Shown here one piece after another: positions 18,953 to 31,715 of a DNA stretch of 64,000 nt. The stretch is taken from positions 19,415-83,414 of the IMG/VR virus record IMGVR_UViG_2913177423_000001. One strand, given 5' to 3'. The position numbers and the translations under genes were made by a program. Within the stretch, counting starts at the first letter, position 1, and each line of letters opens with the position of its first letter. The DNA is from a virus (taxonomy: Duplodnaviria; Heunggongvirae; Uroviricota; Caudoviricetes). The notes below the pieces were generated by a model. That model was not told where the DNA came from, made no database searches, and saw nothing but the letters and a program-made list of their open reading frames with translations.

Positions 18953-19705
18953 TTAATCAGCCTCCAGTGGCAATAACGCCTTAGCCATTTCATGAATCAG
19001 CATGGCATCAATGACGCCTAGCGTATGGCCCGGCTTAATCTTTAATGCGGCCTCAAGATAGCCTCTTTCCAGAGTGGTTTTTACGCTTTTCCTGGGCGCT
19101 TGTTGGGGACTATCCGGAAGATCCGGATGGTTGCCAGCCTCATAAGCTACCCGCAACCAGTGCATGAATGTTTCCGCAGACACACAACCACAGTCCACAT
19201 CGATTTTCCCGCGTTGCTGTTCCAGCCATTGCTCAAAATCTAACTTGCAAGCCTTACTTTCAAGTTCATCACCATTGAACTCGACTTTCTGCGACGCTAT
19301 GAGAGCGGCTTCGTACTGTTCGCGAGAGACAACTGACTGGTATTCATCGCTATCAAGGTCACGAATTGGAAGCTCAATCTCACGACAAAAATTCCGCCCA
19401 TAGAACTGGTCTTTTTTGTGGTCTGAGCCAAAAGCAAAAGTCGCGCATGGCGCCATTAAATTGACACTGAGTATGTGACAATAACTCATGCCATCAGGCC
19501 ATCCGCCGCACTTAGGCAACTCCTTCACTAATAAGTCGATCAGCTTCATTGTTTTACCATCTTTGCAAGTCGCCAAAGCCATTTGAGCAAGCGCCAATAC
19601 TTCATCTGCCGTATATCCAGCACCGTGACCATACATTTCTATTCGGGAAATAATCTCTGATATACGCTCTTTATTGATTCTGATCATAGTTCTATTTCCT
19701 TGCAT
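18953..19705 (-). CDS. hypothetical protein (about 245 aa)
   Basis: long minus-strand ORF; start may be internal ATG at 19687. Confidence 0.55.
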   Translation of the reverse strand: MQGNRTMIRINKERISEIISRIEMYGHGAGYTADEVLALAQMALATCKDGKTMKLIDLLVKELPKCGGWPDGMSYCHILSVNLMAPCATFAFGSDHKKDQFYGRNFCREIELPIRDLDSDEYQSVVSREQYEAALIASQKVEFNGDELESKACKLDFEQWLEQQRGKIDVDCGCVSAETFMHWLRVAYEAGNHPDLPDSPQQAPRKSVKTTLERGYLEAALKIKPGHTLGVIDAMLIHEMAKALLPLEAD

Positions 19706-27289: not shown

Positions 27290-27425
27290 CTACGGCACCT
27301 TAGAAAAACGGGTGCCGGGATTGGTCTCCCGGTAATGTCAAAGGCGACACATAGACGCCGCAAGCGTCTTTTTTGTTGTCGGCGCACTCGCACACCTATC
27401 AATGGTGGGCTGTGTGGTGGCTTCC
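27290..27425 (+). ncRNA. candidate C4-like antisense regulatory RNA in immI-like leader
   Basis: TTGGTCT (27327) and GTGGGCTGTGTGG (27399) complementary to AGACCAA and CCACACAGTCCAC 60-80 nt upstream of icd-like RBS; hairpins and T-run at 27352-27378. Confidence 0.25.
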
Positions 27426-27538
27426 TCGGAAGCGCCGGTTCCCTTTGACGCCGGTAAGACCAACTCCACACAGTCCACCGCCAGTAAGATTGGTCTCTTC
27501 GGCGGTGGTATCGTTCACTGTCAAAGGAGGCTGCCAAT

Positions 27539-29182: not shown

Positions 29183-29533
29183 TTGGCTACTAAAGTTAAA
29201 CTAGAAAATCCGCAAACTGGCGAGTCAATAACAGGTTTTTATGGCTTTTCCTGGACTACATTCTTGTTTGGCGCTTTTCCAGCTTTGTTCAGGAAAGACT
29301 TTATAACTTTTGTTGGGGTATTCGTTGTGATGCTGATACTGGCATGCCTCACATTCGGAATTGGCCCTTGGATAGCCTCGTTTATCTGGGCGTTCATGTA
29401 CAATAAATATTTCACCGTAAATAAGATAAAACAAGGATTCGTATTTGCTAGTTCTCACACAGAAAATGAGTTAGCCGCCAGCAAACTTGGATTAGCCTTA
29501 AATCAAAACAACTGCAAAACTATTACCGCGTGA
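29183..29533 (+). CDS. small inner-membrane protein (DUF2628-like)
   Basis: two TM segments; motif GFYGFSWTTFLFGAFPALFRK. Confidence 0.5.
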   Translation: MATKVKLENPQTGESITGFYGFSWTTFLFGAFPALFRKDFITFVGVFVVMLILACLTFGIGPWIASFIWAFMYNKYFTVNKIKQGFVFASSHTENELAASKLGLALNQNNCKTITA

Positions 29534-29537
29534 AACC

Positions 29538-29570
29538 AAAAAAGCAGGCTTATTTTAAGCCTGCTTTTTC
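29538..29570. terminator. bidirectional intrinsic terminator
   Basis: hairpin AAAGCAGGCTT-ATTTTA-AGCCTGCTTT with T-runs both strands. Confidence 0.7.
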
Positions 29571-29575
29571 GATTA

Positions 29576-30451
29576 CTAGTCCTGCTGACAATTAAGGAAC
29601 ATAAACGCACGTTTGTCCGTTAAATCAGTAACATAATATTCACGAATACCATTCGGTTTTATGCGGCGAGCATACACAAACTTATGAACTGGCTGGTCGC
29701 TGCCATAACTAACCTCAGTGCGAAATTCATCGACCGTGCTACCATCCTTTTCTGTCTCTTTGCGTATCAGTTTATTGTTCAGATCTGGCTGAGTCTCATC
29801 CATTCCGCTAAATGCATCTTGCCCGGTACTATTACCCCGGTTGCCACGTGGTAAATCCCACGAAAAATAAGTCCCATAGTCTGTAATTACCTGATCCCAC
29901 GCCCCGGTTTCATCCATATAATGACTACGCTTCCCTTGGTATGTTACGTCAACCTTACAGGAAAACGTTGGCGCGCTATTACTTGCAGCTGAGGCCGTTG
30001 AAGATTGTGTAACACTGCCATTGTTGGCATTTCCATAGTTCCAGCCATCATGCAACGCTTTAACCCACAGATTAGTCAGGGATAGCGTAACATCATTCCC
30101 CAACGCCTGGCTGATTCGAAGCCTCTGTATCCGGCGTAACCCATACTCATAGGCTTCATCGTCATTAATCACTCGCCCACGTTGAGCGGCTACCACCCCA
30201 GATTGCCACGCACGATTAATTTCACGAATAAGATACACTTGTGGATCAACGCCGTATCTGTTGTATTCATAGTAAAGGCTCATTGCGCCGTGTTGGCTCT
30301 GGTATTCATTAGCCCATGATATAACCGCGTTTCTTCCATAATCCGCGAGCGCAGAATGACTTGACAGAAGAAGAGCAACGCCAACAGTCTTCAGTAATTT
30401 GAATCGGCACAACTTTTTAATAATACGATTGGGAAATGTTTTTTTGCTCAC
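29576..30451 (-). CDS. secreted protein of unknown function (291 aa, signal peptide)
   Basis: GTG start; basic N-region then TVGVALLLSSHSALA; stand-alone gene between terminator and non-coding DNA. Confidence 0.6.
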   Translation of the reverse strand: MSKKTFPNRIIKKLCRFKLLKTVGVALLLSSHSALADYGRNAVISWANEYQSQHGAMSLYYEYNRYGVDPQVYLIREINRAWQSGVVAAQRGRVINDDEAYEYGLRRIQRLRISQALGNDVTLSLTNLWVKALHDGWNYGNANNGSVTQSSTASAASNSAPTFSCKVDVTYQGKRSHYMDETGAWDQVITDYGTYFSWDLPRGNRGNSTGQDAFSGMDETQPDLNNKLIRKETEKDGSTVDEFRTEVSYGSDQPVHKFVYARRIKPNGIREYYVTDLTDKRAFMFLNCQQD

Positions 30452-30732
30452 TTTTCAACCTTTTGCCACAAATCCAGACCAACTACCTAATAATAATAAC
30501 TAACCACTCTGTTTTTTTGATAAGCACCAAATCGTTTACAAAAAAAATAGCAAATGACTATTGACACTATTCTGGAAATCACAAACTGCACATAATCCAT
30601 CGCGCTAACGGCTCCCGTTGAAGGTTCTTTTGACGATTAACTTTCAGCCGAAGCGCGGTAGGGAGTCATAACGCCAAAGCAGGCCGCCATGTGCGGCCTT
30701 TTTTTGTATCCGTCATCCGTGGAGGAAGGACA

Positions 30733-31386
30733 ATGGAAAAGATCGCAATATTCAGCCTGACCACCAGCAAACCGCAAATGCTCACTGCAATACTGAAAGA
30801 CGGCGCTCTCGTGATTAACGAAGTAAAACCCCTTCCCGCGTCAGCATTGGAACAAAAGCAAAAAATTCCTCCAGCTATAGCAGCCCTGCGGAAAAGCAAA
30901 TTTAAGGTGCTGGTTGACGAAATTACGCCAACGATCTCCGCTGGCACCGGAGCAAGCCAGGTAACACTCAAGACACGTCATGCCGACGGCAGAGCTGCGA
31001 TCATCGTAGGGATGGAAAGATACAGAGAGCTAAAACTCCAGAAGCTATTATCCCTGCCGCAAAATAACAAAGGAGCTTTCGAAATCCCCGACTCCATCGT
31101 TGACACCGAATACAACGGTAACGGAGAAGAAGTCTACCGAGTGAACTGGCAGGATATCAGGCCGGAACATATTCTGATGATCCTGTGTTGCTACGCGACC
31201 GTATACCACAACGTTGCCAGCGCGGATTACGTGGAACAGATGACAGGCACAGTCGAGAAAGAGCACAAAACAGGCATCCTCGCTTCGTTCCTGTCCATTA
31301 TTGGGCATGAAAAGGTTAAAGCAGGCACCTCCCAGCCAAAGTCACTGGCTGGGAAAGAAGTTGATGAAGATACCGTGATACTTTGA
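30733..31386 (+). CDS. hypothetical protein (217 aa)
   Basis: start moved to ATG with GGAGGAAGG RBS. Confidence 0.55.
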   Translation: MEKIAIFSLTTSKPQMLTAILKDGALVINEVKPLPASALEQKQKIPPAIAALRKSKFKVLVDEITPTISAGTGASQVTLKTRHADGRAAIIVGMERYRELKLQKLLSLPQNNKGAFEIPDSIVDTEYNGNGEEVYRVNWQDIRPEHILMILCCYATVYHNVASADYVEQMTGTVEKEHKTGILASFLSIIGHEKVKAGTSQPKSLAGKEVDEDTVIL

Positions 31387-31715
31387 TCACATCAGTAGCT
31401 TTGTTAACTCCCTCAATACCAGGTAGAAGAGTAACAAAAATACTGACGCCAGTATTTGCGTGGTCAATGAAGCGTTCATAAACAGATCAATTAGCATTAT
31501 TAATTCGAAAATAACATCCATGTCATTCGCTCAGTTTAATTTTTAATCTACTGCCAGTAAGTAATGAAGCTGGCCCCGCATAAAGATTAATGAAAGTCAC
31601 TTGTCACCAGTGAGGGGATTTATGAATCACATCTCCCTGAGCTGGTGGCCTGTCTGTTTCTCGCATTTCACACCCTGCATACAGTTTCCCCAGGTTATGA
31701 CTGAGGATTTTTGTT

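Follow-up and report, generated by a model that had tools for sequence, protein, structure and literature searches.

An exported two-domain protein of a D6-like phage-plasmid as a probable variant of sim-locus accessory proteins in the P1 family

Phage-plasmids of the P1 family are frequently found in Escherichia coli and Salmonella, and many of them carry resistance genes. To our knowledge, the rules of co-existence and superinfection among these elements are poorly understood, and the sim locus of P1 has hardly been studied since 1990, with SimA and SimB left without an assigned role. The question raised here is what is encoded by a single minus-strand gene that lies between orf80 and mat in an element of this kind, and what its 291-amino-acid (aa) product might do for the element that carries it. 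The DNA analyzed, referred to below as the window, is a stretch of 64,000 nucleotides (nt) from a virus of the class Caudoviricetes (IMG/VR record IMGVR_UViG_2913177423_000001, positions 19,415 to 83,414). A first-pass annotation had treated the gene as a candidate moron, possibly coding for a lysogenic-conversion factor. The present analysis places its product among the exported accessory proteins encoded by sim-type loci of P1-family elements, as a variant with a beta-barrel domain that has not been described.

Among 50,697 phage records, the region matched phage D6 only, at 85.6% identity, and the gene order of D6 was found in the window, namely C4 antisense RNA, icd, ant, a pmgF-like gene, orf80, the gene studied here, mat, gp26 and gp25. 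Because D6 was the sole phage match and the gene order is shared, the window can be placed in the P1 phage-plasmid family as a D6-like element. The D6 gene located in the same place, orf79, is annotated as 'putative superimmunity accessory function protein, similar to P1 simB', and a population study of D6-like prophages likewise names it the simB homologue, describes its surroundings as divergent and reports joint divergence of the simB region and sit in three plasmids (PMC6799933). In D6 Orf79, a signal peptide is followed by a SimB-like domain, which has 52% identity to P1 SimB (E-value 3e-25), and by a C-terminal domain of ~130 aa. The similarity of the window protein to D6 Orf79, at 82% identity, is confined to this C-terminal domain (residues 162-291). 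The sole match obtained in the libraries, PHROG 13054, which is the family of D6 orf79, aligned residues 143-291 of the window protein with positions 127-275 of 276 (E-value 2.2e-82). Membership of the window protein in PHROG 13054 would accordingly be read at the level of the domain and not of the architecture.

The flanks of this position, termed the slot, are shared by 119 PLSDB plasmids. In 56 PLSDB plasmids the barrel is carried in a fusion of a SimB-like domain and the barrel (SimB-like::barrel) and in three in the form found in the window, in which the barrel follows a different N-terminal module, termed type A. In 67 plasmids the slot is filled by a 202-aa secreted protein, whose gene is followed by that of a 130-aa secreted protein (pTB423), by a shortened copy of the latter (L005) or by a SimB-like::barrel gene (L013 and several IMG/VR contigs); the other arrangements are the SimB-domain::barrel gene alone, as in D6, and the type-A::barrel gene of the window. 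At least four slot variants therefore occur among closely related phage-plasmids with flanks 90-100% identical to D6 and to other plasmids, and the window gene was not found in P1. Elsewhere, a type-A gene is located directly after ssb in a lyd/dar-like operon of one P1-like phage (L012), and after upfC-upfB and a spanin-like gene, behind a strong terminator, in another (L011). The comparison of presence and absence across related phage-plasmids that the first-pass annotation had proposed gave a picture of variable slot content, and the conserved synteny as a structural gene that it had named as evidence against a moron was not observed, the positions in L012 and L011 being different. It is likely that the gene is an exchangeable accessory cassette of a sim-like locus.

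The relation of the slot to sim was examined by comparison with P1, in which the simA (52 aa), simB (111 aa) and simC (264 aa) products all have signal peptides and the genes lie beside c4-icd-ant; a P1-like contig with full-length SimA-SimB-SimC beside ant/icd was also found. The gene studied here lies ~2 kb from c4-icd-ant, on the opposite side of the operon from the P1 position. In an unrelated ProQ/KilA-N/Rep3 plasmid contig (L033 2993-3845), the gene for a stand-alone SimB homologue is directly preceded by one for a 163-aa protein homologous to the 202-aa slot protein (E-value 3e-13), which indicates that the pair of a ~160-200-aa secreted protein and SimB is a conserved one, so that the D6 slot would be a shuffled version of this arrangement with the barrel gained and SimC missing. 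The slot is best interpreted as corresponding, in the D6 lineage, to the sim (superimmunity) operon of P1, and the window allele seems to have lost every Sim-homologous part and to have kept the barrel alone.

Other observations concern the history of the sim genes themselves. A 179-aa protein encoded in the simA position of another P1-like element (L034 2911-3450) is 69% identical to P1 SimA over 42 aa, and P1 SimA (L002 3912-4070) matches positions 1-41 of 213 of PHROG 3933. Because of this intact homologue, P1 simA appears to be a truncated 5' remnant of a gene for a secreted protein of ~179 aa. The first 14 annotated codons of D6 orf79 (L001 7129-7170), VKLMVLGTALAAKM, show homology to the beginning of the 202-aa gene that fills the slot in other plasmids; the D6 arrangement probably arose by deletion of the 202-aa gene, with the true start of orf79 at the downstream MFFIKNGK. 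A profile search with the SimB domain for informative fusions returned short stand-alone proteins only.

How the window allele came to differ from its relatives was indicated by a contig (L032) that encodes a SimB-like::barrel protein. Over the barrel-coding part (29600-29960) this contig and the window share ~98% identity, and from 30561 on 98-100%; between these two stretches, inside the exchanged module listed in Table 1, the two sequences are unalignable, with identity at about the random level. At the left joint, the alignment passes from 98% identity to unalignable at ~29960-29975, where the barrel begins, and the reading frame is kept; the right joint (30560/30561) falls inside a look-alike of a P1 late promoter for mat, and the type-A allele supplies a perfect -22 box despite this breakpoint. 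Identity to D6 is 90-95% up to ~29520 and ~75% over the barrel part, is lost in the same unalignable stretch, and is 95-100% from 30561. These comparisons point clearly to an in-frame recombination that swapped ~600 bp comprising the upstream region, signal peptide, N-terminal module and linker and kept the barrel, so that the exchanged unit would be half a gene plus its upstream region, not a whole gene. Recent acquisition as judged by foreign base composition was considered and rejected, the guanine-plus-cytosine (GC) content of the gene being 45.3% versus 47.2% for the window (neighboring genes, 40-52%). The moron proposal was upheld in part, with regard to the stand-alone cassette in a variable slot; the search for a promoter of the gene's own gave nothing convincing, the composition is not foreign and the terminator, although strong, is shared with orf80.

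Table 1. Features of the exported-protein gene and its surroundings (positions in the window)
Feature	Position	Strand	Basis or remark
Coding sequence, 291-aa exported two-domain protein	29576-30451	minus	GTG start, TAG stop at 29576-29578
Sec-type signal peptide, codons 1-36	30344-30451	minus	n/h/c regions and AXA rule; predicted cleavage between SALA and DY
Type A N-terminal helical module, residues 37-142	30026-30343	minus	AlphaFold2 (AF2): five helices, predicted local distance difference test (pLDDT) ~70
Flexible linker rich in Asn/Ser/Thr/Ala, residues 143-161	29969-30025	minus	composition; recombination joint at its 3' end
Conserved antiparallel beta-barrel, residues 162-291	29579-29968	minus	Cys165, Cys288, invariant loop YFSWDLPRGNRGNSTGQD
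Exchanged module: upstream region, signal peptide, N-terminal module and linker	29966-30560	minus	window versus L032
Variant-specific upstream region, 109 bp, 30% GC, with ribosome-binding site (RBS)	30452-30560	minus	unalignable with D6 and L032; conserved in type-A plasmids
Bidirectional intrinsic terminator shared with convergent orf80	29538-29570	both	fold energies
P1-type late-promoter look-alike for mat, AAATGACTA-ttga-CACTAT	30552-30570	plus	compared with P1 LPsit, LP26 and LPmat; putative function
Conserved mat leader with terminator-like hairpin 30681-30706	30561-30732	plus	outside the gene unit

AF2 modeling gave a barrel of ~125 aa with a pLDDT of 90 and a linker region (residues 144-165) with values below 50; the model of the full-length protein was poor (pLDDT 55.7) and for this reason was kept out of the fold search. 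Across 11 diverse members, nine columns of the barrel are invariant, including a Cys near each end of the domain and a Gly-rich loop, F-x6-G-x2-G-x-S-T-G, with the sequence YFSWDLPRGNRGNSTG in the window protein and HGNRGDSTG in its distant relatives. The two Cys residues are located on the first and last strands of the barrel and probably form a disulfide. Stand-alone secreted forms of the barrel, 145-170 aa in length, were found (P0013, P0016, P0017), and it also follows at least four different N-terminal parts, which are SimB-like, type A, the multi-transmembrane, membrane-anchored part of P0014, and that of P0015. Because of these stand-alone forms, the varied N-terminal fusions and the confident fold, the barrel can be regarded as an independent module.

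The type A module was found to be restricted to five proteins (P0001, P0002, P0008, P0011 and P0012) and a protein of Buttiauxella. No relative of it was detected by hhalign or with Pfam or PDB profiles, and hhalign comparisons with the lipoprotein encoded upstream of a stand-alone barrel, with the N-terminal part of P0015 and with the 202-aa slot protein were negative. The remote homology search suggested in the first-pass annotation accordingly connected the barrel with D6 orf79 and PHROG 13054 and left the N-terminal module without any relative beyond these few proteins. The window protein, its neighbors and the alternative slot proteins had no Pfam or NCBIfam match; PDB sequence profiles gave nothing below an E-value of 0.1 for the barrel or the full-length protein, and Foldseek searches of the barrel against PDB and BFVD returned nothing significant (E-values above 0.1). 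The family is small, with 10 clusters among 5.8 billion, 12 representatives among 1.84 billion, 16 IMG/VR contigs and a match in one of 185,579 species-representative genomes, and the type A form was present in five of 5426 complete E. coli genomes, at 97% identity and plasmid-borne every time.

The one match among species-representative genomes is a 270-aa type-A::barrel gene of Buttiauxella massiliensis (L015 2793-8124), which is flanked by an 809-aa N6-adenine methyltransferase-like gene on one side and by a 582-aa gene of unknown kind on the other, a context that looks like a defence island. Two of the stand-alone barrels, P0013 and P0016, are encoded near His-rich lipoproteins that are homologous to each other (45% identical) in contexts that otherwise differ (L006 6558-8438 and L008 7523-8513), the former additionally carrying a Tad2-like gene; these neighbors may link stand-alone barrels to metal or envelope biology. 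In pTB423-type plasmids, the barrel gene is replaced by the gene for the 130-aa secreted protein (L014 3868-4260), which holds GTYTLYSLDVPSRGDMT, resembling the invariant GTYFSWDLPRGNRGNST of the barrel. The hhalign probability for the barrel and this 130-aa protein was 0.4%, and the resemblance is one of a local motif only.

Export of the protein was predicted from the anatomy of its N-terminus. The signal peptide has an n-region (residues 1-21) with a net charge of +8, an h-region, TVGVALLLS, with a mean Kyte-Doolittle hydropathy of 2.2, and a c-region, S-A-L-A followed by D-Y, that fits the AXA rule with predicted cleavage after Ala36. No lipobox was seen on inspection of the sequence, and there is no Cys at position +1 of the predicted cleavage site. 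The window protein has the sequence features of proteins exported by Sec and cleaved by signal peptidase I, and in every type-A homologue a divergent signal sequence stops right before a conserved mature DYG or DYA. The classical signal peptide noted in the first-pass annotation is well supported by these features. With a Sec signal peptide on a soluble protein, the mature product of 255 aa (~29 kDa) is predicted to be periplasmic. We hold this reading of the anatomy and export of the protein with high confidence.

The start codon is preceded, ~8 nt on its 5' side, by an AAGG Shine-Dalgarno-like motif, and it agrees with the RefSeq call in a 98%-identical coding sequence of plasmid pPSS-08-1_2. 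For the barrel-coding half, comparison with D6 gave a proportion of synonymous differences (pS) of 0.75, at which synonymous sites are saturated, a proportion of non-synonymous differences (pN) of 0.12 and a ratio of non-synonymous to synonymous rates (dN/dS) of ~0.03; for the N-terminal domain, comparison with a 97-98% identical relative gave no non-synonymous changes at a pS of 0.07. These patterns in the two domains indicate that purifying selection acts on both and that the open reading frame (ORF) is evidently a real gene and not a chance one. The isolated 291-aa gene of the minus strand was correctly recognized in the first-pass annotation, as was the lack of any virion hallmark, the gene having no synteny as a structural gene and lying in a slot whose content varies among relatives.

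The terminator behind the gene begins 5 nt past the stop codon and serves the convergent orf80 (29183-29533, plus strand) as well. It consists of A6, a 9-bp GC-rich stem (GCAGGCTTA), a TTT loop, the other arm of the stem and T5, with fold energies of -20.1 kcal/mol (z -4.7) on the plus strand and -26.8 kcal/mol (z -6.0; none of 200 shuffles equally stable) on the minus strand. A simple terminator scanner missed this hairpin because its A and T runs pair. The same hairpin is present in D6, and because type-A plasmids that lack orf80 and have ant as the neighbor use a different hairpin, the terminator would belong to the orf80, or backbone, side. Upstream of the gene, 281 bp (30452-30732) without a credible ORF extend to the mat ATG at 30733, and within them only the 109 bp next to the gene travel with it. 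The gene promoter is presumably located in this variant-specific region, in which weak sigma-70 candidates only, such as TTATCA-19-TATTAT, were found. The remaining 172 bp are taken up by the promoter and leader of mat, which show 95-100% identity to D6 and occur in more than 100 plasmids; the plus-strand hairpin there precedes mat and has no T-run on the minus strand, so that it does not delimit the gene. Of the earlier description of the gene as lying between terminators and next to about 280 bp of non-coding DNA, the downstream terminator and the length of non-coding DNA were verified, and a terminator on the upstream side was not; the non-coding stretch itself is no empty spacer.

The late-promoter look-alike that marks the right edge of the cassette has the architecture of P1 late promoters, with a -22 box, 4 nt and a -10 element. 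A second look-alike of this type, AAGTGACTT-tcat-TAATCT, is located at 31594-31621 on the minus strand, antisense to mat and aimed at a small ORF at 31387-31521; transcription that starts there and reads through could extend to the gene under study. No site for the P1 C1 operator consensus was found in the window within three mismatches. The part of the mat leader at 30597-30732 is 100% identical to D6, and the neighboring genes are 90-97% identical; its hairpin, a GC stem with T7 directly before the mat RBS, could be an attenuator or a small RNA. Rfam gave no family in the intergenic region, and the fold of the mat leader was not significant (z -1.4). Elsewhere in the window, Rfam identified the C4 antisense RNA at 27398-27485 and an isrK-like RNA before it at 27295-27374, and three tRNA genes (Arg-TCT, Thr-TGT and Met-CAT) lie within 4398-6102, as in P1-family phages.

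What the protein does for its carrier can be proposed with less assurance. The best overall explanation, put forward tentatively and at rather less than an even chance, is that it is an exported two-module accessory protein of a reshuffled sim-type locus with a Sim-like role. The barrel would be the constant binding unit, acting through its invariant loop, and the N-terminal module an exchangeable partner or specificity unit; the protein would act in the periplasm of the carrier cell on a target that crosses or resides in the envelope, and in Sim-like superinfection exclusion it would interfere with the entry of phage DNA after adsorption. P1 SimC is reportedly a processed periplasmic effector, and the Sim block is said to follow adsorption. 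The P1 sim genes are described as non-essential and dispensable for plaque formation (PMC10695390), and superinfection exclusion is ascribed to sim in another source (PMC9177967, citing Kliem and Dreiseikelmann 1989). Exclusion is favored here because of the partnership of the barrel with the SimB domain, the ancestry of the locus in sim and the combination of a constant domain with a swapped adaptor; a Sim-like exclusion function is possible and still doubtful. The further proposal that the barrel with its F..G..G.STG loop represents an undescribed family of periplasmic effectors of P1-family phage-plasmids, re-targeted by in-frame swapping of the upstream region and an N-terminal adaptor (SimB-like, type A, membrane-anchored or none) and so constituting a modular exclusion system, is speculative and on balance unlikely.

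Several results weigh against a Sim-like role. The window protein had no BLASTP match to P1 SimB, and a tblastn search with SimB found no match in the 64-kb window; the protein has no homology to SimA or SimC, and no SimA or SimC homologue is present within the window, so that the tie from window to sim would run solely through a shared domain partner and position. The active protein of P1 sim is, we take it, SimC, and we know of no role demonstrated for P1 SimB itself. PADLOC returned no families at E-values up to 1 for the window protein, for D6 Orf79 or for the slot proteins of 202 and 130 aa, and the fold matches of the barrel were generic only. No minus-strand sigma-70 promoter with at least 9 of 12 matches and a 16-18 nt spacer was found upstream of the gene. 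The type-A homologues in two other P1-like phages have lysis or late genes as neighbors, and stand-alone barrels also occur in apparently chromosomal contexts beside His-rich lipoproteins, which a general function in the envelope or in ligand binding would explain no less well than an anti-phage one.

Other explanations were weighed on the same evidence. The protein might be a lysogenic-conversion factor that confers a host trait unrelated to phage entry, such as capture of a ligand, lipid or metal, resistance to stress or serum, or adhesion. An exported protein in a variable accessory slot is what such a factor would look like, and the stand-alone barrels beside His-rich lipoproteins in two unrelated contexts and the chromosomal copy in Buttiauxella point the same way, but library searches gave no similarity to known conversion or virulence factors, the family is very rare, nearly all its members are on phage-plasmids with a partner domain that is SimB-like, and the promoter search gave weak candidates only; we consider this explanation unlikely. 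The barrel, small and predicted to be periplasmic, has a single exposed loop that is extremely conserved and two Cys residues, typical of periplasmic proteins, and the protein might instead be an inhibitor or immunity protein whose loop plugs the active site of an incoming enzyme (lysozyme, transglycosylase, an effector of the type VI secretion system or colicin type, or a phage injection transglycosylase such as Sit), in the way that PliC, MliC and PhiA inhibit enzymes by active-site plugging, and this explanation would overlap with exclusion if the target were a phage transglycosylase. The PliC/MliC motifs SxSGAxY and YxxxTKG and the Ivy motif are absent from the window protein, and Foldseek, as noted above, gave nothing significant, making inhibition of this kind quite improbable.

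A periplasmic function late in the lytic cycle, such as modulation of lysis or protection of progeny, with expression from the late box shared with mat or by read-through and not in the lysogen, was judged similarly improbable. The gene has a P1-type -22 box, AAATGACTA, 101 bp ahead of its start, the same box in P1 serves LP26 and LPpmgL bidirectionally, and type-A homologues are found in the lyd/dar-like operon of L012 and after the spanin-like gene of L011. On the gene strand, however, the -10 element reads TTTTTT, or TATTTT at the wrong spacing; no P1-type late promoter in gene orientation was found upstream of the gene or of any homologue, the strong terminator in L011 separates the gene from the upstream operon, and the slot varies among viable phage-plasmids. 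Hardly any weight can be given to a decaying or chance ORF or to a virion structural protein, which might be suspected since annotation was absent in every library searched and the first full-length AF2 model was poor. The strong purifying selection on both domains, the confident barrel model, the signal peptide and the absence of the gene from P1 and from many D6-like elements all contradict it, and the decay and chance-ORF readings are effectively refuted.

The new elements of this analysis are the recognition of the D6-lineage locus as a shuffled relative of sim, with an unannotated beta-barrel as its constant element, and a clean in-frame module swap that separates two natural near-isogenic alleles, type A and SimB-like. 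If the proposal of a re-targetable exclusion module is true, it would give the 'SimB' domain of P1 a function; without an anti-phage role, the protein would count as just another uncharacterized exported accessory protein, of purely local interest.

Among known systems, the closest is D6 orf79 (PHROG 13054), which sits in the same slot, pointing toward orf80 and away from mat, and has a signal peptide and the same barrel, but has a SimB-like N-terminal domain where the window protein has an unrelated helical module and another upstream region. P1 SimB (111 aa, PHROG 14329) is likewise a small exported P1-family protein encoded near immI (c4-icd-ant) and is the partner of the barrel in most relatives, but it is not similar to the window protein, which gave no match to the SimB domain (DFSK[IV]DCN ... 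NSLG), and SimB is stand-alone in 20 clusters. P1 SimC (Sim), a processed exported phage-plasmid protein unneeded for lytic growth, provides the working analogy for the mechanism; it differs in size and predicted fold and is not homologous (hhalign probability with the barrel, 0.08%). The barrel of Cap15, nitrobindin/Rv2717c, LolA, YceI/BcnA and PliC/MliC/PhiA resemble the barrel in shape only, with 2-13% identity and family motifs absent. Like lambda bor and lom and the morons of HK97 and HK022, the window gene is an extra variable gene between backbone genes and is followed by a terminator, but unlike a classical moron it has no clear promoter of its own and is typical in composition, and its exchanged unit is an in-frame half-gene together with the upstream region.

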